A DNA stretch of 64,000 nt from a virus: positions 2,239 to 66,238 of the IMG/VR virus record IMGVR_UViG_3300035491_000116; one strand, 5' to 3'. The translations under genes were made by a program, and so were the position numbers. The notes under the pieces were generated by a model. It had not been told where the DNA came from, made no database searches, and was given only the letters and a program-made list of their open reading frames with translations. Shown one piece after another: positions 17 to 53,810 of the stretch (position 1 is the first letter of the stretch; each line of letters starts with the position of its first letter).

Positions 17-59
17 ATAGTACCCCTAAGTTGTTTTTGCGTAAAGCCGTAATTGCGGC
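17..59 (-). promoter_or_regulatory. sigma70-like promoter (-35 TTTACG, 17 nt, -10 TACTAT) abutting a GCCGTAATTGCGGC operator-like motif
   Basis: Minus strand reads GCCGCAATTACGGC-TTTACG-N17-TACTAT and points out of the left edge of the window. Confidence 0.6.
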
Positions 60-60
60 T

Positions 61-300
61 TTACGCTGAAGAAGGCAGTGTGACGCCCATCTCGTGCTCC
101 AGTTTCCACATGAGCACCATGTCATCCCGCCAACGCAGTAGGCCTTGTTCAGGTACGTCCTTTCCGGACGCTGCCAGCTTCTTCAGCAGCAGTCTGGCGT
201 CCTTCTTCTCAAGGCCCGTGAGGTCGTTGATGTTGCGCCAGGTAACCTGTTCGCCGGTTGCCTCGTTGATAAATCCATCTTCTGTTTTGATTATTTTCAT
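61..300 (-). CDS. hypothetical early protein (79 aa)
   Basis: ORF in the minus-strand gene train; start overlaps the stop of the upstream ORF. Confidence 0.7.
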   Translation of the reverse strand: MKIIKTEDGFINEATGEQVTWRNINDLTGLEKKDARLLLKKLAASGKDVPEQGLLRWRDDMVLMWKLEHEMGVTLPSSA

Positions 301-479
301 GCCATTTCCTCGTACTCGTCGTCTATCTCAACGCCTTCTTCGTTGAGGCGGTTGGCCAGCACCGTGGCCAGCACATACGTTGGTTCTGTGTCGTCGACAA
401 CCTCGTTAAGGTGCTCTTCCAGCACCTTAACGATCGACGCACGGGTCATGACTGCCATTACCTTCTCTGGCGTCACCAT
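297..479 (-). CDS. hypothetical acidic protein (60 aa)
   Basis: GAGG RBS; ATGA overlap with the next gene. Confidence 0.65.
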   Translation of the reverse strand: MVTPEKVMAVMTRASIVKVLEEHLNEVVDDTEPTYVLATVLANRLNEEGVEIDDEYEEMA

Positions 480-552
480 GGGTCGTTACCTCTGGTTTGT
501 GGTATAGCCTGAAGTAGTTGATGCTCTTCGAGGGCCTTGTAGTCGGCGTCGA

Positions 553-1275
553 TCATGTGGCCTTCGGCGGGACGCCTTTCTCCAACATCTTGCGGACCTT
601 CTCGGCCTGCTCGACGGGGACTACTTGGCGCTTCGGCTTTTCCGGTTCAGGGATGAGGGCGGCTGCCTCGGGTACCAGCTCCTGCAGTTGCTTTTTGGTC
701 TTGCAGGCTTCGAGGAGGCTGGCCAGCTCAGCGCGGAACGCCATGGCTTCCTTCACTACGTTGAGGAAGTCATCTTCGACGGACTTGAGTTCGGCTACCA
801 GCGGGTGGCAGTGAGGGAGCTTTTCGACACCTTCCAAGGCTGGCAGGGTTGATGGGGCAGTCAGCCTCAGCCTGTAGGTATCGAAATTGTTCTGAACGTG
901 TGTTTTGAACTCAGAGAAGGGCTCTGAGAAGAGGACCTTGCCCAGGGTATGCTCGAACTCTGTGCGCCCCTCTGAAAGAGTGACGTTGTAACCCTTTCTG
1001 CTGATTCCTGTGATTTCCACGGGATATAGGCTGTCCTCTTCCTGCGCCTTCCGCGGCGTAACCGTATAGACGCCGTTCACCAGCCCGAGCTGGATCAACT
1101 CAGCCCACTGTTTCTGCGGCACCGGGAACACCTTCTTCACGTTCTCGATGTGAGCCGCCCAGAACTCTTTGTTGATGGCTTCCATCCGCTTAACCAGTGT
1201 TTCAGCGTTGTGGGCTACGGCCTTGATCATCAGCTGATCTGCGATGTCAGTGCGGAGCTTCTTGTTCAGGTTCAT
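553..1275 (-). CDS. Nmad5-like (nucleotide modification associated domain 5) protein
   Basis: N-terminal MNLNKKLRTDIADQL and C-terminal TKKQLQELVPEAAALIP match my recollection of the Nmad5 pattern (M-x-L-x-K-x-x-R-x-x-I ... T-x-K-Q-L-x-E-x-x-PE). Confidence 0.6.
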   Translation of the reverse strand: MNLNKKLRTDIADQLMIKAVAHNAETLVKRMEAINKEFWAAHIENVKKVFPVPQKQWAELIQLGLVNGVYTVTPRKAQEEDSLYPVEITGISRKGYNVTLSEGRTEFEHTLGKVLFSEPFSEFKTHVQNNFDTYRLRLTAPSTLPALEGVEKLPHCHPLVAELKSVEDDFLNVVKEAMAFRAELASLLEACKTKKQLQELVPEAAALIPEPEKPKRQVVPVEQAEKVRKMLEKGVPPKAT

Positions 1276-1499
1276 TCGTCGGTTCCTGTGTCATTGCGCA
1301 CCAGCCCGCACCGGCTACGATCTTCCGCGTAGTCGCTGCAGGCTCTGAAAGTCCAGTCTGGTGTCGCTGTTGGAGGTGGTGGGCCAGGCCTGTCAAGCGT
1401 TTCGGCGGTGGCCAGCAGCAGGGCTGCAGAGTAGAGGAGGGTGAGTACGGTGGTGGCTACGATCCCCGCGGCCAGCAGGTCAGGTTCGCGCTCCTTCAT
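1272..1499 (-). CDS. small membrane-anchored or secreted protein (75 aa, start MKEREPD)
   Basis: Hydrophobic N-terminal helix, Pro-rich linker, two Cys; stop overlaps the Nmad5 start. Confidence 0.55.
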   Translation of the reverse strand: MKEREPDLLAAGIVATTVLTLLYSAALLLATAETLDRPGPPPPTATPDWTFRACSDYAEDRSRCGLVRNDTGTDE

Positions 1500-1737
1500 A
1501 GTCGATAAGCCCTTGCTGTTTGAGCCACTCGGCCAGGTGGGTGGAGGTGTAGTCGCTGCCTGTAGGCACCTCTGACTCCGGTACTTGGTGGAGGACGATC
1601 GGGTGGCTTGGCTCTCCGTCCTTCGTGCACAGGAACAGGTCGTACTTGCCTCTGACTGCCTCTTGGTAGCAGAGCAGGCGGTCGCCGTCCCGGTAGTAGG
1701 CGCGGCATAGTCCGTTCTCAACTCGCAGTAGTTTCAT
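1480..1737 (-). CDS. hypothetical protein (85 aa)
   Basis: Coupled ORF; resembles a common phage family (CRxYY...LxCxQ...LxxCTxDGEP). Confidence 0.7.
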   Translation of the reverse strand: MKLLRVENGLCRAYYRDGDRLLCYQEAVRGKYDLFLCTKDGEPSHPIVLHQVPESEVPTGSDYTSTHLAEWLKQQGLIDYEGART

Positions 1738-2279
1738 CGTGGATTGCCCTCAATGTCGTTGGGGTAGGCGTACACCAGACACTCCAGAACGTGCGCTGAA
1801 TCCGTCGGAACATCGACGAGCCGGCCGTTCTGGTCTACCAGCTGCCAGCCTTGCATGACCGCCTTGATGGTAAGCGTGTCACCGTTGTTCATGGCGATCT
1901 GGACGCCGTTCGCCACATGCCCTCGCAGAGAGTGAAAGGCGTCCTGGGTGGTTGTCGTCGGCTCCTCGTCCGGATAGGTGGTCAGGTGCTCCATAACCGG
2001 CCCGTCTTGGTCGATGGCCACCCACTGACAGCAACAGCTGTGTGCGAAGTGGAGCACCTCTTCCAGGTCTGTCGGCCAGTTGTCCGACATATCCTCGACG
2101 CGCTCGGCGACGTGCACTCGCCAGCCGTAGGTGCCGATCGGATCCGTCACAGGCAAGTCGATACCTGTGTCCGGTGTGACACCCATACGCTCTGCGACCT
2201 TGCTGTCCAGCAGATCTCTGGTCTCTTGGGAAATGTGCGCAGTCGATACGACGATCATGCGCTGAATTTCGTATGTCAT
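1734..2279 (-). CDS. hypothetical protein with STAHIS motif (DUF5983-like N-terminus)
   Basis: Likely start MTYEIQRMIVVSTAHISQET, GAGGAAGG RBS, ATGA overlap. Confidence 0.65.
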   Translation of the reverse strand: MTYEIQRMIVVSTAHISQETRDLLDSKVAERMGVTPDTGIDLPVTDPIGTYGWRVHVAERVEDMSDNWPTDLEEVLHFAHSCCCQWVAIDQDGPVMEHLTTYPDEEPTTTTQDAFHSLRGHVANGVQIAMNNGDTLTIKAVMQGWQLVDQNGRLVDVPTDSAHVLECLVYAYPNDIEGNPR

Positions 2280-2692
2280 CCGGCCTTCCTCGCGGTAAGT
2301 GGGCGGTGCTCCCAGCTGATCCGGTGCTTGTCGGCAAGAGAGGCCTGAGCCCACACGCTTCCCGCCACGCCCTCTGGGGCGATGTGCAGCCAGTCGCAGT
2401 GGGTATCCAGCCATTGCACGATCAGGCGCTTGGTCTCTGCGTCGATCTGCCAGGCTGGAACACCACCGTAGAGGTTCACCCCGCCTTCACCCTGCATGAA
2501 GGTGCTGACGTAGTAGCGGGACACGAACTGGCCGTGATCTGTGTGGTCGTAGCGGGCGTCGAAGAACTCGATCAGCGGCTCTTCCTCTGCGTGGATCAAC
2601 TTGTCGTCCAAGCCGTATTTCTGGCCAAACTCAACCAGTCGAATGTTCCACTCGATCTGGTCGTAAAAGGTTGCTGTTTGGTGCATGGTCAC
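2276..2692 (-). CDS. hypothetical protein (138 aa)
   Basis: Coupled ORF with GAGGAG RBS. Confidence 0.7.
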   Translation of the reverse strand: MTMHQTATFYDQIEWNIRLVEFGQKYGLDDKLIHAEEEPLIEFFDARYDHTDHGQFVSRYYVSTFMQGEGGVNLYGGVPAWQIDAETKRLIVQWLDTHCDWLHIAPEGVAGSVWAQASLADKHRISWEHRPLTARKAG

Positions 2693-3036
2693 TCCTCAGT
2701 CAGAATGAAGCCGGCAAACGCGGTCTGCTCGGACCTCACGCCTTTCATGGTGTAGTGGGTATGGACGATGATTCCGGGCATGGCGTAGCCTTCCTCGTCG
2801 TCCAGCGGGGCTTCAAGGGTGAAGCCGTGCCAAACCGCCCAGCCGGTAAGTTCGCGGGCTTTGGTGAAGTCCTTGGCAGTTTTGAACTTGACCGTCATCT
2901 TGTGCAGGATCTGGACACTCTGTACCCCAGTCAGCTCAAGCACCCTCTGCCCAGCGTCCTCACAAACCTCGTCGTGCTCCTCTGTAGAGAGCTTGAGATG
3001 CGGGTAGGGGTAGGCGTTCTGCAGAATCAGTCTCAT
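2689..3036 (-). CDS. hypothetical protein (115 aa)
   Basis: Coupled ORF with AGGAGGAAG RBS. Confidence 0.7.
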   Translation of the reverse strand: MRLILQNAYPYPHLKLSTEEHDEVCEDAGQRVLELTGVQSVQILHKMTVKFKTAKDFTKARELTGWAVWHGFTLEAPLDDEEGYAMPGIIVHTHYTMKGVRSEQTAFAGFILTEE

Positions 3037-4268: not shown

Positions 4269-4528
4269 GGCTTTGGTCTCTCGATAACGACAGGGTGCCC
4301 AGCGTCGTCCTGCACTTCGTAGCGGCCTTGGTACTGCAGGGCGTCTACCACCTTCTGGCGGTGGGAATCGTCCAGCCCTGCCGCATCCAGAAACGCCTGG
4401 ACGCTGCACCAGTCGGAGCTGACTTCGCAGTTCAGCTCCCTGTGGAAGTAGGTGAGGCGGTAGGTGCCTCGGTGGCGTATGAAAATCGCGGCGACCTCGG
4501 AGCGGGGGTCGAGTTTGGTGGCTCTCAC
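4265..4528 (-). CDS. hypothetical protein (87 aa)
   Basis: GTG start overlapping the upstream stop. Confidence 0.65.
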   Translation of the reverse strand: MRATKLDPRSEVAAIFIRHRGTYRLTYFHRELNCEVSSDWCSVQAFLDAAGLDDSHRQKVVDALQYQGRYEVQDDAGHPVVIERPKP

Positions 4529-4890
4529 TCCATGTCCTCCGCGGCGTCGGACGGGATGATGTCCACATCCACGTTGTTGTTCTCCCCTGGCAGGGCGAAG
4601 ACAAAGCTCTTGCGCTTAGGCAGCTCACCGGTTTGCCGGTTGTGGAGGCGCATGTCCTCAAGGGCCTTCCGCACTTGGGTGTGCAGTGGTCCGCCGGGGT
4701 CGTTGTGGAAAATGTCCCCGTCTTCCCCAATCTCAAGGATTACGAGCCTGGACTCCACCTCGTGCATCTCTGCGTCGAACAGGCAGTAGTCCTCGAAGGC
4801 GTCTGGGCTAATCTCGTAGATCTCCCAAGTTGACTGCGCTTCACTGGGGCCAATCTCTACGCGGGCCTGCAGTCTGACTGAATGGCTCAT
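4525..4890 (-). CDS. hypothetical protein (start MSHSVRL)
   Basis: GAGGAG RBS; ATGA overlap. Confidence 0.65.
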   Translation of the reverse strand: MSHSVRLQARVEIGPSEAQSTWEIYEISPDAFEDYCLFDAEMHEVESRLVILEIGEDGDIFHNDPGGPLHTQVRKALEDMRLHNRQTGELPKRKSFVFALPGENNNVDVDIIPSDAAEDME

Positions 4891-5345: not shown

Positions 5346-5357
5346 GGGGTTGGCTCC

Positions 5358-6286: not shown

Positions 6287-6579
6287 ACCGTAGGTCTCCA
6301 GTCGGTGAACACAAACTCAATCGCGGACCAGACAAAGTAGTAAGCCCACTTGCCTTCGATCTTGCCGCGGTGGAACGTCACGAGAGGGTCCGATTCAATC
6401 GGGCTGCCCTTTCGGTACCCAAGCTCCTCTTGGAGCAGCCTGACTTCCTCCACCTTGACGTTCGCAAAGAACGATCTGGAGGTGACCTCGATGGAGCCCT
6501 CAATCAGGTCATTCAAGTGCGCTACGTTACCCGGCCAGTTCTCTCGGTTGCTGAAGAAGGGGAGACTGCGCTTAGCCAT
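6283..6579 (-). CDS. hypothetical protein (98 aa)
   Basis: Coupled ORF with GGAGGG RBS. Confidence 0.7.
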   Translation of the reverse strand: MAKRSLPFFSNRENWPGNVAHLNDLIEGSIEVTSRSFFANVKVEEVRLLQEELGYRKGSPIESDPLVTFHRGKIEGKWAYYFVWSAIEFVFTDWRPTV

Positions 6580-7069: not shown

Positions 7070-7085
7070 TTGGTTTGTCCTTGGG

Positions 7086-13985: not shown

Positions 13986-14716
13986 TGTCTTGGTTCTCTT
14001 CGGTTGGTGAGGTTTCGATGGGGTCGATGTCGGGTTCGCCCATCTCGTAGAAGCACTCCTCGTCCGGGTGGTACCCCTCCCAGAGCCGCACCTCTGCATG
14101 CAGCGGGCTGCCACGTTCAGTCGTGATGATCACGTCCAGTATTTGGCGGGAGGAGAGGTCACACTCGAGCGCCTTCACCTTGTTCTCCAAGTCGAAGAAC
14201 AATTCGGCCATGGCCTGTGAGTTGCCGTAGCGCTTCTCAGCCCAGAGGTAGCCGAGGTTGGCCCACTCGCCGACCTTGTAGCTGAGCCTGTTCCACGGGT
14301 ACTCAGGCTGGTGGCGGTCAAGGAATCCCTGCACCATCGCCTCCAGGTCGGCCGAGTCCGCCTTGTCGCCCCGCGGTATCTCAAACAGGTCGTAGGCCTC
14401 AGCCGGGTCGGGCAGATCGCTCAGTTGGAATCCGAAGTCCTCCGCCTCGATCAAGCCGTGAAGCTCCATGCCCAGCCCAACGGGGTTGGTGAAGTTCACC
14501 CCTGTCAGGCACTCATACCCACCTTCGTACCGGCCAAAGATGATGGCCCCGAACGCAGCAATCTCTGCGGCTGGGCCTCTCAGTCCGGGCGGGTGTTCGA
14601 GCAGGTCATGGGCGGCGGTAAGGGAATCCCCGGGGGTGAAGTAGTCAGGGGGCGTTGTGCTCCAGCCACCCAGGCGGGTCGCCGTCGGGGCGGTAGATCA
14701 ATTGGTGCTCAGTCAT
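13975..14716 (-). CDS. hypothetical protein split by a +1 frameshift at CCC-TGA (14650-14645); programmed frameshift or pseudogene
   Basis: ATG at 14716 has a strong AAGGAG RBS and gives 23 aa ending CCC TGA; the +1 frame is open from there to 13975 and has no ATG/GTG/TTG before 14499. Confidence 0.55.
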
Positions 14717-14764
14717 CGGGTTGCTCCTTGAAGGCCCGGCCTTACGCTTGGCCGTGTTTACGGC

Positions 14765-15316
14765 TTAACGGTCCCACCCAAGCCGCTGCGCCTGATGCAT
14801 CAGTACCTCGTACAGGTCATCAGCGATCCGCTGGGCCAGCTCGGCGTCACTCAGGTGGCCGCTGCGCTCCAGCCTGCCGGAGTAGGAGAGCTCCACCTGA
14901 TTCGGGGTCTTGTCGTGGTAGGTCTGGCAGAACCCCAGCACCCACTGGTAGTCGTCGTCATCGGCACCTACCGGCTTGGCTGCCCACAGCTCGGCGCTGA
15001 TGTGCGGGTAAAAGTCGGCGTCGAACAGCTGGCTGGCTGGCAGGATCTCAGGCTCGCCGTCCTGGCCGTAGGCCACGTCGCTGATCAGGCAGCCGACCGC
15101 GCACATGGCACCGTCGTCACCTCGGTAGGCGCACCCTTCTAGGGGTTCCCGGTTGGTGAAAGACCGCCGGCGCTGGGTGGCAAGGTGCGTGGCCATCTTG
15201 TCCACGATCGGGGCGAAGATGGCCAGCCTGCCGATGAGGTTGGTGGGTGGGGAGTAGACCGGCTGGTAAGGGGTGAGATTCATGGTTTTGACTCTCGGTT
15301 TTTGAGTGAGATTCAT
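14765..15316 (-). CDS. conserved phage protein (CAYR...CAVGCLI motif)
   Basis: Motif C-x-Y-R-G-x4-CAVGCLI; GAGGA RBS. Confidence 0.75.
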   Translation of the reverse strand: MNLTQKPRVKTMNLTPYQPVYSPPTNLIGRLAIFAPIVDKMATHLATQRRRSFTNREPLEGCAYRGDDGAMCAVGCLISDVAYGQDGEPEILPASQLFDADFYPHISAELWAAKPVGADDDDYQWVLGFCQTYHDKTPNQVELSYSGRLERSGHLSDAELAQRIADDLYEVLMHQAQRLGWDR

Positions 15317-17724: not shown

Positions 17725-18069
17725 TTACTCCCTGATCAGTCTGGTGACGCCGACGATGCGGCCGTTTTGGTCCCGGATCGGGCCGTCATTGGGGCCGGTA
17801 CCGGGGGCGAGGACGTCAGGCCGGCTGATACCGGCGGTTTTGAGGGCCTTGAGCACCAAGCTGGAGGTGACGTAGTGGACGCCCTCCTGCGGCTCTGGCA
17901 GGCCCTCGACCTCGCTGAAGGCGTTTTCGTAGACCGGCATTCCGCCGACCTCACCAACGAACACCGAGGAGGATCTGACACGGGCAAGCTGGCCGCTGAC
18001 CGGCAGCTCGACCACGCCGTCGGCGGTGTAGAGGGTCAGGGCGTGAGGGGTCATGTTGATCAGTTGCAT
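17725..18069 (-). CDS. NxTPH-motif protein, candidate Crn4-like cyclic-oligoadenylate ring nuclease
   Basis: LINMTPH ... SGQLARV ... LPEPQEGVHYVTSSLV ... RPDVLAP ... IRDQNGRIVG; family assignment is from memory. Confidence 0.5.
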   Translation of the reverse strand: MQLINMTPHALTLYTADGVVELPVSGQLARVRSSSVFVGEVGGMPVYENAFSEVEGLPEPQEGVHYVTSSLVLKALKTAGISRPDVLAPGTGPNDGPIRDQNGRIVGVTRLIRE

Positions 18070-18201
18070 AATTTTTTCCTTTTCGGGTAGCCACCTTTGC
18101 GGCTACCCGTCTTTGCGGTATTGATGGCCACCTTTGCGGCCGTTCGTCTCCGGCTTTCAGTGTTCAGGATAGCGAACAGCCGGTTTTGATACTTGCCGTG
18201 T

Positions 18202-18669
18202 TTACGGCTTTGGGGCGGCGCCGGGCACGTCCATGGCGGACAGGGCGGCTGTGAGAGCCTCAGCGGCGGCGTCAGCGTCGATCCGGTTGGCGGTGGGGCC
18301 GTGGGTATGGTTAAGCGACTCACGGACCTCAGCGGGGCGCTTACGCAGCGCCTCGACCATATCCCGCTCCCCAAGGGAGTGGGCATTCATCATCGCCGCT
18401 GGGATGGCCATGAGGAATCCTGGCTGGGTGTAGTCGGCCGCTTTCAGCCGTTTCATCTTGATCTCGCAGTTGAACCGATGCGGCATGACGCCGTAACGCT
18501 CCGGCATGATCCGGCGCAGCTTGCCGATGACGCTGCGCGGGGTGTCGGCAGCCAGGAACAGGCTGTGAACCGCGTAGACAACGCCCTGCTCTTTGAGGCG
18601 CAGGGTTACCAGATAGACGTTAGGACGAGGCAGCTCGCCGGCTGCGATAAACAGGCTGTGATTCGGCAT
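18202..18669 (-). CDS. hypothetical protein (155 aa)
   Basis: AAGGAACCAAGACA leader before ATG. Confidence 0.7.
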   Translation of the reverse strand: MPNHSLFIAAGELPRPNVYLVTLRLKEQGVVYAVHSLFLAADTPRSVIGKLRRIMPERYGVMPHRFNCEIKMKRLKAADYTQPGFLMAIPAAMMNAHSLGERDMVEALRKRPAEVRESLNHTHGPTANRIDADAAAEALTAALSAMDVPGAAPKP

Positions 18670-19933: not shown

Positions 19934-20890
19934 TCGAATAACCAAGGCGGGCGCGGTGGCCCGCCATTTTCGTTGTCTTGACTAGGTACCGAGGCGAATC
20001 GGTTGCTCTTTTGATTGCCGGTCGCCGGGCGCAAAGGCCGGGCAATGCATGGCGACGCTCGATCAAGCGGCAACGGGCGCAGTTCGCCCGTCGTTTCCGC
20101 TTCGTTGTGGTCGGTTGCCTAGTCTCCAGATTTTTAAAGTCGTGGTTGCTCAAACCACTACATACCCCATGCCCGCTAAATGGTAATGATTATCATTATC
20201 AATGGCTCGCCTTGCCCCCATTCAGTCGCCTATATAGGCGCCGTCCGGGTGGCGTGGCCAGCAACTGGAAAAGCACGACACTCTGACCAACGGCCCGCCA
20301 TGCGGTGCCGTGACGGTGACAGTGGAACAATCGGCAAGCCTTCGGCCTTACCGAAAATCCACGGTCACTAGGGAAGCGTCCGGGCCAGTGGTGCGCCCGT
20401 TGCAGTTGCTGGCCGGTGGCCAGCGGGTGGAAGTCGGTTTTTAAAGAGCGGGGCGGGTCAGAGACCGCCGGTCAGACCGGAAAGCCGTAAAGCCGCTTTG
20501 CCGTGTCGACAAGGCAAAGATTAGGACAGTGGCCCGAGTGAGTCAAGCATAAATTGATTCTTTTTTAGGACATTTCACGCCACACCCCGCCCCGTCTTTT
20601 TTGACTACTCCAGAACGTCCATCTTCCCCTACCACCCCGCCCAAAATTTTCACATTTTTCAAAATCCCAGCCACAAACAAACCCCAGACCACCACTCCAC
20701 CCACCACCAAAACCACCACAAAGCCCAGTAAAATCAACACATTGCGCCGATTCACCACCAACTTTCCCCAGACCGTCACAGGCCCCTACAGCCACAACCA
20801 AAATGGCCAAACCAGCGCCACCCCCGCGCCGGCGCAATCCACAATCGCCGGCGCACCCAAGCCCAGAATTGGCTGCGAAAATCGCAAATT
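19934..20890. other. non-coding, hairpin-rich and strand-biased block between divergent early and late arms; candidate genome end or cos/pac region
   Basis: No credible ORFs; several GC hairpins; G-poor plus strand at ~20560-20880; lies just upstream of HU/terS. Confidence 0.45.
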
Positions 20891-20891: not shown

Positions 20892-20935
20892 GCCGGAATT
20901 ACGGCTTTACACCTCGGCGGGGTCGCTGGTATAAC
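20892..20935 (+). promoter_or_regulatory. sigma70-like promoter (-35 TTTACA, 18 nt, -10 TATAAC) preceded by GCCGGAATTACGGC motif
   Basis: Hexamers at 20906-20911 and 20930-20935, upstream of the HU gene. Confidence 0.6.
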
Positions 20936-20975: not shown

Positions 20976-21257
20976 ATGAGCAAGAAGCTGAACACCATCG
21001 TCGACCTCACCACCTCCGTCCGAGATCAGCTCGGATGCACCAAGGCAGAGGCGCGTCGCGCTGTCGAAGCGGTACTCAACTCCATCAATGATTTGTCTGA
21101 AGACAAGAAGCTGCAGCTGAAGGGCTTCGGTACCTTCCAGATGAAGACCCGCGCACCGCGCAACATGATTGCCCCTGCAAACGGCCGCGAGTACCACATC
21201 CCACCGACCCGCAACCTGACGTTCCGTCCGTCCAAGATCGCCGGTCGCGTCGTCTGA
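20976..21257 (+). CDS. HU/IHF-family histone-like DNA-binding protein
   Basis: TKAEARRAVEAVL helix, LQLKGFGTF signature, arm RAPRNMIAP, FRPSK. Confidence 0.9.
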   Translation: MSKKLNTIVDLTTSVRDQLGCTKAEARRAVEAVLNSINDLSEDKKLQLKGFGTFQMKTRAPRNMIAPANGREYHIPPTRNLTFRPSKIAGRVV

Positions 21258-21846: not shown

Positions 21847-21873
21847 TGTTATTATTGCTGTATGGACATACAG
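21847..21873 (+). promoter_or_regulatory. extended -10 promoter (TG-T-TATTAT) with an overlapping LexA/SOS box CTGTATGGACATACAG (21858-21873)
   Basis: CTGT-N8-ACAG; 14/16 identical to the E. coli recA operator core CTGTATGAGCATACAG. Confidence 0.7.
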
Positions 21874-21959: not shown

Positions 21960-22157
21960 ATGGAAAAACAACAAGTTAAAGACATCGCACCAGGTCAATA
22001 CCGCATTTTCGGCGGCCTTCGCATTACCGTTAATCGCAGCGCCTATGGTGATGTGAGTTGGAATGCCGGACGCCTCACCTGGCTGGTATCCATGCTGCTC
22101 AAGGCCCGTCGCGCCCTCGGTAAGCAGTCCATCAAGCTGGATCCGGTGACCGTATGA
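21960..22157 (+). CDS. small basic protein (65 aa) inserted between terS and terL, putatively SOS-regulated
   Basis: AGGAAGAG RBS; stop overlaps the terL start (ATGA). Confidence 0.65.
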   Translation: MEKQQVKDIAPGQYRIFGGLRITVNRSAYGDVSWNAGRLTWLVSMLLKARRALGKQSIKLDPVTV

Positions 22158-23878
22158 GCGGGATGTCCTCCAGGCTGAGAACACGCCTGAGCAGGGAGGA
22201 CGGTCTCCGAGAGCTGGACAAAGTTGTCCAGCGCTACGGGGTCGTGAACGGGAAGCCTTTCTCGTTCAAGGACCACGAGTTCCAGATCGAGATTATCCGC
22301 GACACACGCTCCAGGCAGTCCGTCCGCAAATGTTCGCAGGTGGGGCTGTCTGAGCTGATGGTTCAAAAGACCCTGGCGCTGGCCACGGTCTTTCCTCACA
22401 AACGCTGCATTTTCACGTTGCCCACCCTCGAGTTCGCCAACAAGTTCTCAAAAGACCGTTTCGACGCGGCCATTGAGAACTCGGAGCACTACAACGCGAT
22501 GGTGGTCAAGGCGAACAACTCGGCCAGCCAGAAGAAGATCGGCAGCTTTACCCTGTATGTGGCCGGCAGCTTTGGCAACAACTCGGCGATCTCAGTACCA
22601 GCCGAGATCCTCATCAACGATGAGGTCGACTTCTCCAACCCCGAGGTGCTCGGCAAATTGTCTTCCCGCCTGCGACACGCGGAGCTTGAGGATGAGCGTG
22701 GTTACCGTGGGATGCGGAGCAAGTTCTCGACGCCGACAGTGCACGACTACGGTATCGACGGTGACTTCGAGAACGGGCACCAGGCTTACTACATGGTCAA
22801 GTGCAGCTGTTGCCAAGAGTGGGTGCTGCCGAATTTCTTCGAGGACTTCGTGGTGCCTGGATTCGATGGGGCCATGGCGGAACTGCGAAAGGGCGACCTG
22901 TCCAACCCTCGGTACCGGTTTGACGAAGCAAGCCTTCGGTGCCCGTCTTGCCGTGGTGACCTGTGGCCGGCGCTGTGTGACCCATCACGCAGGCAGTGGG
23001 TAGCGAAGCGGCCGGACGCTTGGGAGCACAGCTACCAGGTCTACCCATGGGATGCGCCTAAGTACAACCCACCAGGAGTGGTAATCCGCCAGCTGGGTGA
23101 CTACCCACTCATCTCTGACTACTACAATTTTGTGCTCGGCGTACCTCACTCTGACGCCGAGAACAGCTTCAACGTCGAGCAGGCGTACAAGGACCGGATT
23201 TCTGATGTAGAGATGTGGCAGTATCTCGTCGGAACCGTAATGTCGGGTATGCGCAATGCCGGTGTTGTCGCCGGCATGGACATCGGCAAGATCTGCCACT
23301 TCGTCGTCAAGGCTAAGGCTGGCAAAAACTGGCACGTCGTCTACGCCGAGAAGATCAAAAACACCCGGGAGAACCCGGCGACCAAGGAGATTATTGGGCG
23401 TATTGACTACTTCAGGTGTGCGAAGGTGTGTATTGACGCTGGCCCTGACATCACCCTGGTCAACAACTTGGTTGAGGCCCGCCATCAGGTGTCGGCGGTG
23501 GTCTACGTCCGCAGCATCAAAGGTCTGCAGCCGTTCGAGGTGAAAGGGGAAGGGGAGGTTATCAACGCCGACCGAACCAAGACCCTGAAGGAGCTTCTGG
23601 CGAAGCACAACAGCGGAGAGATCCGCTACATGCGGCGCCAGGACATCCGAGACGAGATTTTCAACCACCTCAAGACCACGAAAAAGATCAGGGAGCGCAG
23701 CTCGGACGGCGACATGGTCGAGCGGTTCATCAAGACCAGTGATGACGACCACTGGGTTCACGCGCTCAACTACGCGCAGATCGCGGCAATGGTCGTGTCA
23801 TCCTCGCTGACCACCGGCGTTATCGGGGTGCTGCCGGGCGTTTCGACGGTCAGGGTGGGGTCAGCGGCTGGGGACTAG
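22154..23878 (+). CDS. terL: terminase large subunit, lambda gpA-like
   Basis: Walker A RKCSQVGLSE, Walker B ILINDEVD, STPT coupling motif, CSCC and CPSC zinc motifs, nuclease GMDIG ... HWVHALNYA. Confidence 0.9.
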   Translation: MSGMSSRLRTRLSREDGLRELDKVVQRYGVVNGKPFSFKDHEFQIEIIRDTRSRQSVRKCSQVGLSELMVQKTLALATVFPHKRCIFTLPTLEFANKFSKDRFDAAIENSEHYNAMVVKANNSASQKKIGSFTLYVAGSFGNNSAISVPAEILINDEVDFSNPEVLGKLSSRLRHAELEDERGYRGMRSKFSTPTVHDYGIDGDFENGHQAYYMVKCSCCQEWVLPNFFEDFVVPGFDGAMAELRKGDLSNPRYRFDEASLRCPSCRGDLWPALCDPSRRQWVAKRPDAWEHSYQVYPWDAPKYNPPGVVIRQLGDYPLISDYYNFVLGVPHSDAENSFNVEQAYKDRISDVEMWQYLVGTVMSGMRNAGVVAGMDIGKICHFVVKAKAGKNWHVVYAEKIKNTRENPATKEIIGRIDYFRCAKVCIDAGPDITLVNNLVEARHQVSAVVYVRSIKGLQPFEVKGEGEVINADRTKTLKELLAKHNSGEIRYMRRQDIRDEIFNHLKTTKKIRERSSDGDMVERFIKTSDDDHWVHALNYAQIAAMVVSSSLTTGVIGVLPGVSTVRVGSAAGD

Positions 23879-24181
23879 GGCGCCGTCGCGCACCTTGTAG
23901 CTCATGTCATCGTTTCTGACGGCGCAGTTGAACCCGTCCTCACCGTAGTAGCTTTCGAGGCTATTGCTGTCCTTCTCGACCGGGCCGTTGTTGGTCAGCT
24001 GGTAGAACGTGGTGTACGTTACATCCTGGTCAGAAATAGATACGCAGGTGTCTCCAGATGGGCCACGGAAAATCGTGACTCGACTGTCTACTGAGTCAGA
24101 CCTCACCTTATACGGTGGCGCTTCTCCTGTACCGCAACCGGCCAAGCCAACAACCAACGCGCCAACAATCAACATCCTCAT
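23861..24181 (-). CDS. antisense-oriented lipoprotein (moron-like)
   Basis: Signal peptide MRMLIVGALVVGLAG-C with LAGC lipobox; GGAG RBS. Confidence 0.75.
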   Translation of the reverse strand: MRMLIVGALVVGLAGCGTGEAPPYKVRSDSVDSRVTIFRGPSGDTCVSISDQDVTYTTFYQLTNNGPVEKDSNSLESYYGEDGFNCAVRNDDMSYKVRDGALVPSR

Positions 24182-24303
24182 CCTAAGTAACTCCTCAGCT
24201 TGAACTTTAGCCGAGTCTACCATGCAAATAACCGTTTGCTACTTGACAGCTTTTTCCTTATTCTCTAGCGCAAATGCGGCTTTACGGCAATACGGCAAGG
24301 TGA

Positions 24304-27202: not shown

Positions 27203-27661
27203 ATGGCTGATTTTGCATTCAACCTGTTGGCGCAAAACCCTGAGCGGTTGAACGTCATTTCTACCCGCCTCGGCGCCTCCAAAGCCGAGAAATTCAACGA
27301 CGCTGATGTAGGCAAGGCTGTGAAGCTCGGGACTGCTTCCAACCACGTTCTGTGTGCGTCTGGTGACGAGATCCAGGCTATCGTCGACAGCATCGACAGC
27401 GGTGGCACCAACGGCGGCTACAGCTTCGGCGGTGTTGACCGCGGCACCCGTGGCTTCCGCGTCAAGGCGGTGATCGGCCCCAACCAGGGTGCGACCGCTG
27501 CAGCGCTGGACGATCTGGTCGTTGCAGACGATCAGGTTGCCGTAAACACAGCAGGCATCGCCCGCGTAATTACGGGCACTCCGACAATCAACAAGTGGCG
27601 AATCATGGCTATGAACGGCGACGGTACTGCTGGTACCGAAGTCATTCTCGAGCTGTGCTAA
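27203..27661 (+). CDS. head decoration/cement protein
   Basis: 152 aa, Gly-rich and beta-rich, between protease and capsid; AAGGAGG RBS. Confidence 0.65.
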   Translation: MADFAFNLLAQNPERLNVISTRLGASKAEKFNDADVGKAVKLGTASNHVLCASGDEIQAIVDSIDSGGTNGGYSFGGVDRGTRGFRVKAVIGPNQGATAAALDDLVVADDQVAVNTAGIARVITGTPTINKWRIMAMNGDGTAGTEVILELC

Positions 27662-31596: not shown

Positions 31597-32631
31597 ATGT
31601 CAGAAGTCAAGAGCTACAACGATTCATCCGCCGTCTCCCTGGCATACGCTATGGGCAACGGCGACACCGCGGCGGATTTCGCCGGGGAAACTTTCAACCT
31701 GCTGCCCTTCACCCAAGAAGGGTTCTCGATGAGCAAGGAGGCCAAGACCTCCACCGCCATCAAGGGTAACCGACGCTCTTCAGGCAGCAAGAACACCAAG
31801 GGCTCGGCATCTGGCTCTGCCACTTACGAGTTTGGTGTCTCTCCGTTCATCATGGACATGCTGTCTGCCCTGATGATGGATGACTGGAAGGAGGTCGAGG
31901 CCGGTGTTCCTGCTTCTGGCACCTACCTGCACGACAACGACATCAAGAAGTTCATGGCGGTAGAGAAAACCGTCAAGAGCGGGCCTCTGGAAACGGATCT
32001 GCTGTACCACGAGCGCTACTACGGTGTGGTTGCCAACGACTCCACCATCGAGTTCGGTGACGGCGAGCTGGTTACCTTGGCCATGAACTACATGGCTATG
32101 AACGCTGACTACGCCGAGGCAGCGGCCGGCGTTGATGGCCTGGGCGGTAGCATTGCGACAGCGAAGACTGCACCCGCAGATTACGAGATCGCTGACTCTT
32201 CAAACAACCTTCAGTCTGTGATTCTGCGGGACGACCAGGGCGTGGAGATGGAGGTGGTGTTCACCGACCTGAGCCTGCAGATCCAGAACAACGCACGGGA
32301 ACAGACTGGCCTCGGCCGTCAGTTCGCAGCAGGTGTGGGGATCGGCAAGGTAGCCGCAACTCTGTCTGGCGAGATCTACTTTGTAGACCAGACCATGCTC
32401 AACGCCCACATGGAGAACAAGCGCCTGAGCGCCGAGTTCACCGTGGCTACGGAAGATGGGGCATTCACCTTCTACCTGCCTAACCTCATGGTCCAGTCTC
32501 CGGCCAACAGCGCGGAAGGCGAGAACCAGGACTACAAGACCTCCCTGACCCTGTCAGCCGAGGAAGGGGAGGCCACTGTCGGTGCCAACACCTTCAACTG
32601 TGTAGTTGCGGTCAAGTACGTGCCTGCGTAA
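31597..32631 (+). CDS. major tail (tube) protein
   Basis: 344 aa, beta-rich, precedes the chaperones and tape measure. Confidence 0.8.
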   Translation: MSEVKSYNDSSAVSLAYAMGNGDTAADFAGETFNLLPFTQEGFSMSKEAKTSTAIKGNRRSSGSKNTKGSASGSATYEFGVSPFIMDMLSALMMDDWKEVEAGVPASGTYLHDNDIKKFMAVEKTVKSGPLETDLLYHERYYGVVANDSTIEFGDGELVTLAMNYMAMNADYAEAAAGVDGLGGSIATAKTAPADYEIADSSNNLQSVILRDDQGVEMEVVFTDLSLQIQNNAREQTGLGRQFAAGVGIGKVAATLSGEIYFVDQTMLNAHMENKRLSAEFTVATEDGAFTFYLPNLMVQSPANSAEGENQDYKTSLTLSAEEGEATVGANTFNCVVAVKYVPA

Positions 32632-32639
32632 ACTGTGAA

Positions 32640-32669
32640 GCCGTAAAGCCGGTGATTCGGCTTTACGGC
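32640..32669. promoter_or_regulatory. perfect 12-bp inverted repeat GCCGTAAAGCCG-N6-CGGCTTTACGGC
   Basis: Intergenic between tail tube and chaperone; built from two copies of the genome-wide motif. Confidence 0.7.
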
Positions 32670-45992: not shown

Positions 45993-46073
45993 GTTGTGGC
46001 AAAAAACCGTGAAAGCAGTAGAATGTTATTGCCGTAAACCCGGCAAAGAGAAAATACGGTAATCGGAGGCGGG

Positions 46074-50204: not shown

Positions 50205-50812
50205 TGGCACTTCCCAGTTCTGGGCAGATCACGTTTCAGGACATCGCTACAGAGCTGGGGCTGACTGGCCCCATCACTCTGGATCAGGCCGAGGTACGGG
50301 CGTTGGCCGGCATCCCATCAGGCCCTATCAGTCTTGCAGATTTGGCTGGTAAGAGTGCTTTGAAACTGACGGCGACGCTGACTATTGGGTACGCCGCCGA
50401 GGTCATCGACAAGCTGTCCATGCCTGAGTACCGTGGCTTCTGGACTAGAACCCACACGAGTATCAGTCAGAGCCCAAAAGGGGCTCTTGATCCGAAAGTG
50501 ATCGACGGGGAGACCATCTGCATCTTGGTTGAGTCACGGGCGAGCAGTAACTCCACAATGCCGCAGCACAACAGTTTCATCTTTGCGGTCACTGACCAGA
50601 CGATCCCGCTCGACTTTTTCTCGTCGATCAAGATTAAGAGCGGCTCTACGTTGCTGCATACGTTCAACCGAGCTGACGCTGCCTCTCAACGCGGGGTTGT
50701 GTATACCGGCGTAGACGACTACCCGGCCACTATCTACACCTGGACTCTCCCGACTACTGCGGCGGGCCAGGTTTTCCCCACCTCCGGCACACGCACTATC
50801 GAAATCGGGTAA
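50201..50812 (+). CDS. putative fibre-tip adhesin or fibre-associated protein
   Basis: N-terminus ALPSSGQITFQDIATELG...ISLADLAGKS, of the type that follows S74 fibres; coupled to the fibre stop. Confidence 0.55.
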   Translation: MMALPSSGQITFQDIATELGLTGPITLDQAEVRALAGIPSGPISLADLAGKSALKLTATLTIGYAAEVIDKLSMPEYRGFWTRTHTSISQSPKGALDPKVIDGETICILVESRASSNSTMPQHNSFIFAVTDQTIPLDFFSSIKIKSGSTLLHTFNRADAASQRGVVYTGVDDYPATIYTWTLPTTAAGQVFPTSGTRTIEIG

Positions 50813-50818
50813 CACAAG

Positions 50819-51520
50819 ATGACAAGAAAAGGCACCTTTATGACGCTGATGCAGCTTGGTCTGCTGGCGTTTATCCCTTACGCAGTGGCCACAGGCACCG
50901 CAGCACACTGGCTGTTGGCCGTTTTCATGTACGCGGTCTATGCGGGTGTTGGCACCGTGGTAACCATGCACAGGCTGCTGGCTCACCGGGCTTTTGAAGC
51001 GCCGCTGTGGTTCCGCTGGTTCGGTACGTTCTTTGGCACCGTGGGCAGTTTGCTGACGCCTCTGGAGTGGGTGCAGCAGCACGTTGACCATCACCGTTAC
51101 GTCGATACACAGAAAGACCCCCATTCACCCGTGATCCTCGGCTGGAAGGCGCTGTTCTTCTGCTTCCACAGCCAGGGCACCGGGACGATTGCCGTGATGC
51201 GTTTGGCCAAGGAGCCGTTTATGCGCTTCATGCACCGCTGGTTTTACCCCACCCTGGCCGGGTATATCGCGCTGCTTTGGCTTTTTGGCGGCCTTGAGCT
51301 GGTGACCTTCGCGTGGGCTATCCCGTGCCTCGGCGCCCTCTGGGGGCAGATCCTGATTGTCTTCGCGCATGACGAGCACGGGGCCAAGAACAGCGGAGCG
51401 CTTAACGGGCTGCTGACGTTCGGTGAGAACCGCCATACCCGCCATCACGAGGACCCCCGGGACATCACTCAGGATGGCTTGGCCTACTGGTTCATTCAGA
51501 AAATCAGGACTGACAAATGA
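50819..51520 (+). CDS. membrane fatty-acid desaturase (acyl-CoA/delta-9 type)
   Basis: Three His boxes HRLLAH, HVDHH and GENRHTRHH, plus DPHSP and transmembrane segments. Confidence 0.88.
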   Translation: MTRKGTFMTLMQLGLLAFIPYAVATGTAAHWLLAVFMYAVYAGVGTVVTMHRLLAHRAFEAPLWFRWFGTFFGTVGSLLTPLEWVQQHVDHHRYVDTQKDPHSPVILGWKALFFCFHSQGTGTIAVMRLAKEPFMRFMHRWFYPTLAGYIALLWLFGGLELVTFAWAIPCLGALWGQILIVFAHDEHGAKNSGALNGLLTFGENRHTRHHEDPRDITQDGLAYWFIQKIRTDK

Positions 51521-52077
51521 TCGAAGAGCTGAAGCGGCTGCGAATGACAAACGAAGGCGGCAAGGAAGTCTGGCTTATTCCAGATCTTTGGCTTGCTCTC
51601 CTGCGCGTTCAGCTGCCTGTGGGGGAGCGATACGAGGTCTACAACCCAGCCGGCCACCCCTACGCATCGGAAGGTACAGAGGACGGCTCCATCGGCGCCC
51701 TGCGCTCTGCCACCGTCGTCGCCCCCGGCGGGCGGGTGAAGGTACACAACGAGCTGCTGGAGCAGCCGTCAGTTTGGGAGGGCTCCCTGAACCCGGTGTG
51801 CAACGGCGTGTTCATCAAGGCCAAAGTCGAGTTCGAGGCTGAGATCCCGAGCACCTTGCTGTGTGCCAGCCCGCCGGGCGACCTGACCCGGTTTGCCGGT
51901 AAGCTGATGCGCCGTGAAACCGTCCTGGAAGGGCAGAGTTACACGTTCCAGGCAGGCGATGTCGGGTACGCCGTGGTTTACGGTGACGGGGAGATGCGGG
52001 GCTTTTCCGTCGAGCCTGGGGACGTTTTGACGGCCAGCAAGGACACCGTAATTGCGGTTGTGAGCGAGGTGGGTTGA
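51517..52077 (+). CDS. beta-rich, possibly cupin-like hypothetical protein (186 aa)
   Basis: ATGA-coupled; alternating beta pattern; fold is my inference. Confidence 0.6.
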   Translation: MIEELKRLRMTNEGGKEVWLIPDLWLALLRVQLPVGERYEVYNPAGHPYASEGTEDGSIGALRSATVVAPGGRVKVHNELLEQPSVWEGSLNPVCNGVFIKAKVEFEAEIPSTLLCASPPGDLTRFAGKLMRRETVLEGQSYTFQAGDVGYAVVYGDGEMRGFSVEPGDVLTASKDTVIAVVSEVG

Positions 52078-52283
52078 TGGCTTTGAAACTGGGAAGGGTA
52101 TCGCTTGAAGCAGGGGAGGGGTTCACTGCTGCCTACAGCGACGGCTGCAGGGCGGTCTACCTGGTGGAGGGAGCTCACGACACACTTGAGTATGGTAAGC
52201 CGGTCCAGGTGCAGGAGGGCGGGTCAATCCAGCTGAACGCTGTGACACCGATAGTGGTGGGGGTTGTGAGGGAGGAGGGCTGA
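52074..52283 (+). CDS. small beta-rich, cupin-like protein (69 aa)
   Basis: Coupled at both ends; AVYLVEG strand motif. Confidence 0.55.
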   Translation: MMALKLGRVSLEAGEGFTAAYSDGCRAVYLVEGAHDTLEYGKPVQVQEGGSIQLNAVTPIVVGVVREEG

Positions 52284-52777
52284 TGGCGTTTGTCGACCCA
52301 TTGGCCAACGAGGTCACCAAGGCGCTTTGCGGCGAACTACTGGCGCAGCGTGAGACGCTGCTTGAGCTCGCCAGAGAGATGCGCTTCATCGAGTGGCCTG
52401 AGCCGATCTACTCCGGTCGATGGGATGTGTCGTCGTTCAAGTACCGGCACAAAGTCTTCTCTGGTGAGTTCGGCTCTGCGGGCCTTGGCAAGCTGGGTCT
52501 GATTGATAGGCCGGAGATCCAGACTGCTGGGTTCTCCATTCTCGGGCCGGGGGCTGAGATCCGCTGGCACCAAGGCAACGCCGGCGACGTGTGGCGCCTG
52601 CACATGGGACTGGACTGCCCGGAGGGGGACTGCGCTATTCAGGTGTTGGGCGAGGAGCAGAGCTGGAAGGACGGGGAGTTTCTGATGTTCAACGATCAGG
52701 ACGCGCACCGAGCGTGGAACCGGACGGGTCGTGACCGGCTGATCCTGTTGGTGGATGTGGTGAAGGAGGGGGTATGA
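52283..52777 (+). CDS. aspartyl/asparaginyl beta-hydroxylase family Fe(II)/2OG oxygenase
   Basis: FSILGPGAEIRWHQG...RLHMGL..P...W..G....FND...H.AWN....R.IL..D. Confidence 0.9.
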   Translation: MAFVDPLANEVTKALCGELLAQRETLLELAREMRFIEWPEPIYSGRWDVSSFKYRHKVFSGEFGSAGLGKLGLIDRPEIQTAGFSILGPGAEIRWHQGNAGDVWRLHMGLDCPEGDCAIQVLGEEQSWKDGEFLMFNDQDAHRAWNRTGRDRLILLVDVVKEGV

Positions 52778-53049
52778 GTTTTGGGTTGAGGGTGTGGGAT
52801 GAGAATGGGGTGGTCACCCTCGAGTCTAAGGACCTGGTGACCAGGAAGCTGGGGCAGGTCACAACTACGGCCAACCAAGCAGGGTCCGTCACCGTACAGG
52901 GTACAGGTCTCGTCTGGTATAGCGTACAACCGAACTACCACCCAAACTTAGCCTCCACTACGGTGCCTCCGCAGATCACCGTGTCAGGCCGGGCTATCTA
53001 TTGGACTGCGGCTGCTCAGTCTGTATCCATTCAATACGGGGCCTACTAA
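52774..53049 (+). CDS. small tail-tip accessory protein
   Basis: MSFGLRVWDENG start typical of genes that follow gpJ in lambdoid phages. Confidence 0.65.
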   Translation: MSFGLRVWDENGVVTLESKDLVTRKLGQVTTTANQAGSVTVQGTGLVWYSVQPNYHPNLASTTVPPQITVSGRAIYWTAAAQSVSIQYGAY

Positions 53050-53775
53050 GTGGACGCCGGACTGCTCGTATCCGGGGACTCCGGAAACATACAAGTCGAC
53101 TCTACCTACCGTAACTTGGTATTGACGAAATCTGGGTCTATTACGCTTTCCAATGGTAACACGGAGGCGTACTCATCCAGCAATGACCCTCGCGTATTGG
53201 TTTCCTGCACCGGAGTCGACCCCCTGATCGCTGTGAAGTCTTCAGGCCCAACAAGGACGTACAGGACTTCTTCTGGGCCGGGTCAGTTTGACTTCCATAT
53301 CCTCGGGTACGTTGGGAGTTCAGTGCAGTATTTTATCTTTGATGAGGCCCCTCTCGTTCAAGGGTCGTTTGGGCTGAAGGTTTTCGGGTCTGCGGGGGAC
53401 ACCGTATTCGACTCTTCCTTACGTCCGATGAGAGTGCTTGGCAGGTACAACGGAAGCGCAGCTCCTTGGCCATACGCGGGCTCCGTAGACTACACAGAGA
53501 CTGCTTACCCGTTCAGTCACGGAGACCTGGCCGTCGTCACTTGCCAGCAGGCTGCCAGAATGGTGGTTGAGGCATACGATATGATGGGCAGCTACATATA
53601 TGAGACGTTTATAAACAGTTCCAGAAGTTTTATCAGAGGGTCAGAAGCTGTCGTAATCAACTCGCAGGAAACTGCCTTTGCAGGGGGCGGTACCGGAGGG
53701 GAAATGTTCAGAAGGGACCTCTGGGAGATACTTGTAGTAGACGTATCCGGGTACCCTTCGGAGTATTCTATTTGA
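53050..53775 (+). CDS. tail-tip accessory protein
   Basis: AGLLVSGDSGNIQVDSTYRNL ... FGLKVFG..G..VFDS, the usual partner of the preceding gene. Confidence 0.65.
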   Translation: MDAGLLVSGDSGNIQVDSTYRNLVLTKSGSITLSNGNTEAYSSSNDPRVLVSCTGVDPLIAVKSSGPTRTYRTSSGPGQFDFHILGYVGSSVQYFIFDEAPLVQGSFGLKVFGSAGDTVFDSSLRPMRVLGRYNGSAAPWPYAGSVDYTETAYPFSHGDLAVVTCQQAARMVVEAYDMMGSYIYETFINSSRSFIRGSEAVVINSQETAFAGGGTGGEMFRRDLWEILVVDVSGYPSEYSI

Positions 53776-53810
53776 ACCGTATTTACGGCAATACGGTTTT
53801 GCGGTAGTCT
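53775..53810 (+). promoter_or_regulatory. candidate lysis promoter (-35 TTTACG, 17 nt, -10 TAGTCT) inside the inverted repeat AACCGTATT-N6-AATACGGTT
   Basis: Hexamers at 53782-53787 and 53805-53810; overlaps a copy of the genome-wide motif. Confidence 0.55.

Follow-up and report, generated by a model that had tools for sequence, protein, structure and literature searches.

What is the role of a short sequence that recurs at the junctions between the operons of a phage? The question is raised by a stretch of 64,000 nucleotides (nt) of viral DNA, referred to here as the window, which corresponds to bases 2239–66238 of the 79,229-base pair (bp) IMG/VR virus record IMGVR_UViG_3300035491_000116 (59% G+C). 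A 14-bp quasi-palindrome had been noted at about ten operon junctions of this stretch, and the original prediction was that it forms the site of a dimeric phage regulator acting on both early and late promoters. The copies of this motif are parts of longer arrays of phased 8-bp units, which are associated with intergenic DNA and with predicted promoters and are conserved at syntenic positions in temperate relatives only; the phage itself is temperate. We infer that the arrays are bound by a protein that represses these promoters. With a probability of roughly 60%, they are the operators of a small phage repressor that silences the prophage, the likeliest binder being a 61-amino acid (aa) protein that resembles ribbon–helix–helix (RHH) proteins.

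A repeated intergenic motif

All ten sites of the motif (10/10 checked) carry the expected sequence at the expected positions. The degenerate pattern GCCGTAAWNNCGGC matches exactly at five of them (46, 14751, 18195, 20892 and 46031), as compared with 0.00 matches expected from 100 shuffles of the sequence, and the remaining five are one or two bases off the pattern. When up to two mismatches are allowed, 42 strand-hits are obtained, against 8.9 ± 3.3 expected and a maximum of 17 in the shuffles. Similarly, the core GCCGTAAA occurs nine times in the window, with 0.87 occurrences expected.

The location of the motif was assessed with a k-mer test that presupposes no motif. This was applied to the whole 79,229-bp genome using a crude gene map, drawn from open reading frame (ORF) length and codon-position G+C, in which 9.3% of the DNA is intergenic. 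The top two intergenic-biased words in the genome are GCCGTAA (13 of 23 copies intergenic, p = 2e-8) and CGGCTTTAC (8 of 9 copies, p = 5e-8), in agreement with the intergenic location that had been claimed. The gene order likewise agrees with sites upstream of the HU/terminase, portal, chaperone/tape measure protein, fibre and spanin (lysis) units, and the near-match reported inside a gene at 27539 is present. Four more sites are found beyond the window, at the window-equivalent coordinates 68298, 74732, 75715 and 76667. The repeated motif is real and non-random, and probably regulatory.

Anatomy of the arrays

Alignment of the intergenic copies on their CGTAA core gives information peaks at 8-bp intervals on both flanks. 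Counted from one anchor CG per site, 10 of the 13 arrays have a further CG at +8, 7 have one at +16 and 9 have one at +24, and 33 CGs fall in phase as compared with 3–11 in each of the seven other phases. Each array has a length of approximately 30–32 bp and consists of about four 8-bp units GCCGTAAA, direct or inverted, with a central CG every 8 bp. The unit is formed from a GCCG-type box and a 4-bp A/T-rich spacer (TAAA-type), and three to five units are found per site in patterns that include >>>>, >><< and ><<<, where direct and inverted units both occur. A head-to-tail layout is observed in the arrays at 20476–20507 and 24268–24297 and a head-to-head layout in the 28- and 30-bp palindromes at 39–66 and 32640–32669, and the orientation of the units with respect to the direction of transcription is mixed. 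The 14-bp quasi-palindrome is consequently not the basic site that it was first taken for; it consists of two head-to-head units (GCCG-N6-CGGC, with the CGs 8 bp apart) inside a longer phased array. Nor does a dyad for a single dimer describe an arrangement of about four units, both direct and inverted, which implies several cooperating dimers.

A detector that requires at least three in-phase units, with a relaxed unit score, identifies 18 arrays in the genome, whereas 200 second-order Markov simulations give a mean of 2.0 and a maximum of 8. Of these arrays, 13 touch intergenic DNA (8.9% of the DNA); the weakest unit scores belong to the hits in coding DNA, whose number is close to that expected by chance. 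In total the 79-kb genome contains 13 to 15 arrays.

Arrays and predicted promoters

A weight-matrix score was used for sigma70-type −35 and −10 elements because a stringent scan for the sigma70 consensus found almost no promoters; 400 random windows served as background (median 3.7, 95th percentile 7.2, 99th percentile 9.5). A predicted sigma70-like site above the 95th percentile accompanies 10 of the 13 arrays. The array lies over the −35 element of the predicted promoter at 46, 20892, 53776 and 75715 and at +1 to +32 at 20484, 24275, 32640, 46031, 68298 and 74732, while the array at 76667 is found downstream of an extended −10 element (TGgTAGCAT). The relations to promoter hexamers originally described at 46, 20892, 53776 and 46031 were confirmed. 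A position over the −35 element or at +1 to +32 is the geometry of a repressor operator.

The first array (39–66) is a 28-bp palindrome of four units (>><<) that has no strand of its own. It covers the −35 hexamer TTTACG (40–45, minus strand) of a predicted leftward promoter, which continues with N17 and the −10 hexamer TACTAT (17–22). In the near-identical relative L136 this promoter is located ahead of a DUF7740 gene and an Xis-like gene that adjoins the integrase. The next three arrays are on the minus strand. That at 14733–14764 contains four in-phase units, starts directly past the stop codon of the gene at 14765–15316 and precedes the ATG at 14716 by about 35 nt. The array at 18179–18208 has in-phase units at offsets 0, 8 and 24 and includes the TAA stop codon of the gene at 18202–18669. 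Short hairpins are formed by two copies of GCCGCAAAGGTGGC (18084–18140, minus strand) located between this array and the gene that starts at 18069; they are caught by the array detector but look like a separate element. The array at 20476–20507 consists of four direct units and occupies approximately +7 to +32 of a predicted leftward promoter, TTGACT (20541–20546), N17 and TAATCT (20518–20523), with a score of 11.9, above the 99th percentile; both array and promoter are kept in L147, the closest relative.

The remaining arrays of the window are on the plus strand. The array at 20892–20919 overlaps the −35 hexamer TTTACA (20906–20911) of a predicted rightward promoter, which is followed by N18 and the −10 hexamer TATAAC (20930–20935). 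This promoter has a score of 11.9 and is upstream of the HU-like gene and the terminase genes, and the same arrangement is observed in L147 and in a further relative, L149. Contigs of two sequencing runs (X5 and X7) differ within 20920–20924 by a 1-bp deletion at 20920 and a 1-bp insertion after 20924; the pair of changes falls in the spacer of the HU-operon promoter and leaves the −35/−10 spacing unchanged. The array at 24268–24297 (four units, ><<<) extends from about −3 to +25 of the predicted portal promoter, TTGCTA (24236–24241), N17 and TATTCT (24259–24264), with a score of 11.3. This arrangement of promoter and array is kept in L147, L148, L149 and about 15 IMG/VR relatives, about 20 contigs in all. 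In many relatives (L152, L153, L155–L160, L167 and L178) the portal ATG directly follows the array, for example ...TACAGTTAATG, without a Shine–Dalgarno sequence, and the leader of the portal mRNA would therefore be the array alone.

Between the tail tube and chaperone genes, the array at 32640–32669 forms a 30-bp palindrome of four units (>><<) at approximately +1 of a candidate promoter, TTGCGG (32606–32611), N17 and TAAACT (32629–32634), with a score of 7.1. The array at 46031–46060 occupies about +1 to +28 past the −10 hexamer TAGAAT (46019–46024; score 9.9) and is located ahead of the gene for a 1376-aa tail fibre. Finally, the array at 53776–53805 (four units, ><<<) covers the −35 hexamer TTTACG (53782–53787) and the spacer of a promoter with the −10 hexamer TAGTCT (53805–53810) and a score of 7.6, upstream of the spanin and lysis genes. 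Two further loci lie within genes. The near-match at 27539 belongs to a candidate array of uncertain status (27539–27576, plus strand), which may be real; it precedes the major capsid gene by about 110 nt and has in-phase units at offsets 0, 24 and 32, and in the relative G001 an array is found immediately upstream of the capsid gene. A palindrome ACCGTAATTGCGGT at 52045–52058, inside the gene at 51517–52077, has in-phase neighbours (52023–52056) and represents either a weak intragenic array or chance.

The presence of arrays at nearly all predicted promoters, those of the structural and lysis units included, would also suit elements of positive control or promoter specificity, through which a phage factor activates middle and late promoters, or adapts the host RNA polymerase to them, and thus times the lytic cycle. 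Four arrays are upstream of or over the −35 element, where class II activators act, and a different motif in the group of Pseudomonas phage Lana includes a −10-like hexamer and occurs in sense orientation only. However, six or seven arrays are at +1 to +32, a repressive rather than an activating position, and the −35 and −10 hexamers of the associated promoters are good as they stand. As the distance to the start site and the orientation are both variable, and the arrays are tied to the temperate lineage only, a role in activation is considered quite unlikely.

It has also to be asked whether the arrays act in RNA, as terminators, processing or stability signals or translation leaders, with the periodicity as a by-product. 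The arrays at 46 and 32640 fold into very stable hairpins (z-score about −6.9), several arrays would fall in 5′ leaders, and the portal ATG that stands right behind the array in relatives, without a Shine–Dalgarno sequence, would suit a role in translation. Eight of ten arrays, however, fold no or little better than shuffled sequences (seven at z-scores of −2.3 to +0.6 and that at 20484 at −3.1); direct-repeat arrays are unable to self-pair, and units are found in both orientations relative to transcription. No U-tract or T-run follows any array, so that the combination of a G+C-rich hairpin and a U-tract that defines an intrinsic terminator is lacking, and in L149 and G001 a canonical intrinsic terminator stands on its own downstream of the syntenic tube–chaperone array. 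Four arrays are upstream of the predicted start site and would not be transcribed from that promoter, and Rfam gives 0 matches at the gathering score in the window. A common RNA function for the arrays is unlikely, and this explanation as a whole is very improbable.

Arrays in related phages

The nearest named phages are the Pseudomonas phages Lana, UAntarctica and PMBT3, the portal proteins of which are 65–69% identical to that of the phage studied here. Neither the motif nor the arrays are found in these three genomes, and their published descriptions make no mention of such a motif; the claim that the regulon is undescribed holds for this phage group. Portal homologues collected from metagenomes and IMG/VR split into an array-bearing group A and a Lana-type group B. 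In group A, with portals 72–85% identical to that of this phage, a good sigma70 promoter is followed immediately by an 8-bp-phased array upstream of the portal gene. Group B instead contains a palindromic hairpin after terL, with compensatory changes in the stem.

In two temperate relatives available as whole genomes, G001 and G004, the k-mers with the strongest intergenic bias are ACCTGTAAATACAGGT-type words. Each genome contains 25–26 arrays at syntenic junctions, built from a diverged unit, CCTGTAAA, and the spacings between units are almost only 8, 16 or 24 bp. Pairs of units at a distance of 8 bp have the same orientation in 10 and 9 cases and are convergent in 16 and 15, divergent pairs being rare. 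L147 has the GCCGTAAA unit, and its unit-level changes preserve the phase. The relative L196 has CTGTA units in a run of five direct units, and the variants of the unit across the relatives are GCCGTAAA, CCTGTAAA and CTGTATTG. Conservation in related phages was accordingly borne out for temperate relatives, at the same junctions and with a diverged unit, but not for Lana, PMBT3 and UAntarctica. The arrays belong to the temperate branch of the phage family. A scan of IMG/VR with the exact 14-mer gave single chance hits alone and was uninformative.

This divergence of the unit bears on a further explanation, that a host factor such as an AmrZ-like RHH protein binds the arrays, or that they are recombination boundaries between modules. 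The arrays are indeed located at module junctions, and AmrZ is among the weak PDB matches of the RHH profile described below. However, units that differ among related phages (GCCGTAAA, CCTGTAAA and CTGTATTG) fit a co-evolving partner encoded by the phage and not one host protein, and the positions of the arrays relative to the promoters are maintained. An origin of this kind is given hardly any credence.

The virulent Lana-type phages have a different element after terL. In Lana (L127:1790–1850) and at the loci L162–L166, L170, L171, L175 and L182, shortly upstream of the portal gene, this is a palindrome of the form TAACCCGCT-N4-AGCGGGTTA, with stem changes that compensate one another from phage to phage. 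Lana also contains eight sense-oriented copies of CGCTAACTAGCG, 20–130 nt before start codons.

Lifestyle of the phage

The phage is temperate. A 409-aa tyrosine integrase is encoded at genome positions 342–1571, outside the window at its left end, and the two ends of the record are seen to join in near-identical metagenome contigs. The integrase gene and the gene that opens the leftward operon are divergently oriented, about 510 bp apart. An integrase is present in three of five group A records, as compared with none of the five complete group B (Lana-type) genomes, and one additional group A record is flagged as a provirus. In a bacterial assembly, one relative is found as a prophage next to lepA, with the phage–host junction in the intergenic region between the integrase gene and that of an ArsR-type protein (see below). 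Homologues of the RHH-like protein are annotated in genomes of Stutzerimonas stutzeri.

The same intergenic region of about 510 bp (L136:2961–3472, with the integrase at L136:1741–2961) holds an attachment core that matches the end of host lepA. It also contains approximately six TGTACA(C) repeats, which are kept even in relatives with a different array unit and may be arm-type integrase sites or the sites of another regulator.

A lipoprotein gene (23861–24223, minus strand) is placed antisense between terL and portal and is divergent from the portal promoter and its array. Its product has a signal peptide and the lipobox LAGC. The gene is found only in the array-bearing temperate lineage, being absent from Lana, UAntarctica and PMBT3, and is typical of lysogenic-conversion genes. 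In one metagenome contig (run X9), 294 bp of it (23873–24168) are missing. This antisense gene of 120 aa was also considered as the binder and was rejected, as its product is a lipoprotein with signal peptide and lipobox and has no Pfam hit.

A LexA-type box, CTGT-N8-ACAG, is found at 21858–21873, directly past an extended −10 element and ahead of a 65-aa gene (ORF 21960–22157) that is coupled to terL. Taken by itself, the loose LexA-type pattern is no more frequent than chance predicts (1 found, 1.29 expected). The 65-aa gene behind this LexA-like box could be an SOS-controlled anti-repressor.

Candidate binding proteins

The HU-like protein (20976–21257, plus strand; Pfam Bac_DNA_binding, E = 3e-18), which had been suggested as a candidate, is discounted, since its homologues occur in relatives that lack the motif. 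The proteins that do track the motif are the RHH-like and the ArsR-type protein, both encoded outside the window and just inside the right end of the record. Neither gene has a homologue in Lana, UAntarctica or PMBT3. The module to which they belong, in the order ArsR-type, (193 aa), RHH, 108 aa, 112 aa and helicase, is kept in every array-bearing contig examined. The 193-aa neighbour was considered as a ParA-like partner and rejected, having no Pfam hit and, in the homologue from G004, no Walker motif by eye.

The RHH-like protein consists of 61 aa and is encoded on the minus strand at genome positions 77688–77873. Its gene is found only in array-bearing genomes, at a fixed location, and the array at 75715 covers the −35 element of its own candidate promoter. 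Four RHH families of Pfam are matched, all sub-threshold (best ParD, E = 7e-4), and the top matches of its profile among PDB sequences are ParD (E = 1.2e-3), omega (0.086 and 0.16) and AmrZ (0.44). The predicted homodimer has a score of 0.45, as compared with 0.00 for the best of three controls, with at least 91% of contacts shared between runs and a predicted local distance difference test (pLDDT) value of at least 70. As a benchmark, a score of 0.45 is reached by 20 of 30 solved homodimers and by 1 of 23 single chains. Residues 15–21 of both chains are predicted to pair as an antiparallel ribbon, the hallmark of the RHH fold, although this result may reflect likeness to solved RHH dimers and not independent evidence.

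The ArsR-type winged-helix protein consists of 97 aa (genome positions 78599–78892, minus strand) and has Pfam matches to HTH_20 (E = 6.7e-11) and HTH_5 (E = 5.4e-10). It may be that the same regulon is read by this protein, a dimer of which would sit on the head-to-head pair (GCCG-N6-CGGC, or CCTGTAAATACAGG in relatives), with the RHH-like protein having another role. The gene occupies the same location in every array-bearing contig examined, is first in the leftward operon, adjoining attP, and carries an array at its own promoter; in addition, the commonest form of the site in the relatives is a 14–16-bp palindrome, which suits a symmetric dimer. However, many arrays are direct repeats at 8-bp spacing (four direct units at 20484, those at 24275 and 53776, and five direct units in L196), which such a dimer leaves unexplained, and in-phase third and fourth units are the rule. 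We know of no ArsR-family operator with such a direct-repeat layout. A search of species genomes for prophages with the ArsR-type protein gave only unrelated, distant hits. The ArsR-type protein as binder is a live rival, though the explanation built on it is on the whole rather improbable.

If the arrays are operators, it is the RHH-like protein that is favoured by analogy as the somewhat more probable binder, because the architecture of the arrays is what RHH proteins are known to read and because runs of four or five direct units are not accounted for by a symmetric winged-helix dimer.

Proposed silencing of the prophage

Because the phage is temperate, silencing of the prophage (immunity) is the likeliest role of the arrays. 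The idea of a phage regulon acting on early and late promoters stands in so far as phage-specific predicted regulatory sites are found at both leftward (early, replication and xis) and rightward (structural and lysis) units; as to its function, it is better read as prophage silencing. One repressor dimer would bind each 8-bp unit, and the three to five units of an array would be coated cooperatively. A bound array on the −35 element or on the first 30 transcribed bases would prevent transcription from initiating or from clearing the promoter, and since arrays cover these positions in sigma70-type promoters, the block would apply to nearly every transcription unit: early-left, replication, xis, HU/terminase, portal, tail chaperone, fibre and lysis. 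Where no promoter is present, the two arrays concerned may serve as roadblocks, and the operon of the repressor itself would be negatively autoregulated. Since a repressor of this kind lacks a domain for self-cleavage, an anti-repressor would be required for induction, and the product of the gene behind the LexA-like box at 21858–21873 is a possible candidate.

Several observations weigh against silencing by the RHH-like protein. The promoter positions rest on prediction, and no convincing promoter is found close to the arrays at 14751, where the best score (2.9) is under the background median, and 18195. The repressor genes are co-directional with the replication genes, an unusual layout for an immunity region. 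The assignment to the RHH family rests on sub-threshold sequence matches, and the AlphaFold model of the monomer is poor (pLDDT 60) and unusable for a fold search. No simple covariation is observed between the DNA-facing residue of the RHH strand (L, V or D) and the unit (CCG or CTG), and L196 combines the strand KKFTLVMP with CTGTA units. Finally, the ArsR-type gene is equally conserved in the RHH module, likewise with an array at its promoter, and the phyletic pattern therefore cannot separate the two candidates.

A broader proposal, more tentative than the silencing of this prophage and on balance doubtful, is that temperate, Lana-like siphophages of Pseudomonas and Stutzerimonas form a widespread lineage in which immunity depends on a single repressor, a ParG/omega-like RHH protein. 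This protein would coat approximately 14–26 arrays on every promoter, the units GCCGTAAA, CCTGTAAA and CTGTATTG would define immunity groups, and induction would proceed via an anti-repressor. If prophage silencing by such arrays is real, phage immunity would here follow a principle unlike the lambda or L5 type, in which a very small cooperative protein reads phased arrays on every promoter. It would account for the acquisition of a temperate lifestyle by a clade of Lana-like phages that otherwise look virulent, and the immunity groups of Stutzerimonas and Pseudomonas prophages would be predictable from sequence. The arrays would also provide a natural set of operators that differ by degrees in strength and have several specificities (GCCG, CCTG and CTGT units), for the study of specificity change in RHH proteins. 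For annotation, they provide a predicted promoter map in a phage group for which none has been described.

Comparison with known systems

Small RHH repressors are familiar from phage P22, where Arc and Mnt bind as dimers of dimers to operators that overlap promoters. Arc and Mnt, however, control only immI/ant via single operators of 21 and 17 bp, and not genome-wide phased arrays.

A closer likeness in architecture is offered by the operator of ParG, in which tetramer boxes with regular 4-bp AT-rich spacers, direct and inverted, are each bound by one dimer and are coated cooperatively to give repression (PMC3130281). As in the operator OF and the centromere parH of plasmid TP228, the phage arrays combine short boxes, here GCCG, with 4-bp A/T-rich spacers at a period of 8 bp and in both orientations. 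ParG differs in acting at one plasmid locus and also in partition with ParA, whereas the phage has approximately 14 short arrays dispersed at promoters and no ParA-like gene was seen. The boxes themselves are unrelated (ACTC in ParG, GCCG or CTGT in the phages). Similarly, MetJ binds 8-bp metboxes, with RHH dimers on tandem units (PMC2775130), and omega of pSM19035 binds 7-bp heptads arranged head-to-tail or head-to-head, in arrays of at least two units at several promoters (PMC9499535). The phage arrays share with both a layout of short tandem units, which in MetJ (8 bp) and omega (7 bp) are read by RHH dimers, and omega is the second-best PDB match of the phage RHH profile. However, the MetJ unit is itself palindromic and MetJ needs a co-repressor; the period of omega is 7 bp and not 8 bp; neither is a phage immunity system, and the similarity of the phage protein is marginal (E = 0.09–0.16).

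In terms of function, the nearest analogue is the repressor gp71 of mycobacteriophage L5, a temperate siphophage, which silences the entire prophage through more than 20 operator or stoperator sites, placed in promoters and in short gaps between genes (PMC9283540). Both are temperate phages with more than ten dispersed sites in promoters or short intergenic gaps, 13–15 arrays in the present case. The L5 sites are single, asymmetric 13-bp sequences whose orientation follows transcription, whereas the phage arrays are multi-unit, often palindromic and of mixed orientation. Moreover, gp71 is a monomer with a helix–turn–helix and a stoperator domain, unlike the RHH or ArsR-type candidates. The repressor of phiC31, which has conserved inverted repeats, is a comparable case of dispersed sites. 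By analogy with these systems, the regulon is read as a combination of RHH-style phased operators with dispersed prophage silencing, extending across the whole temperate lineage.

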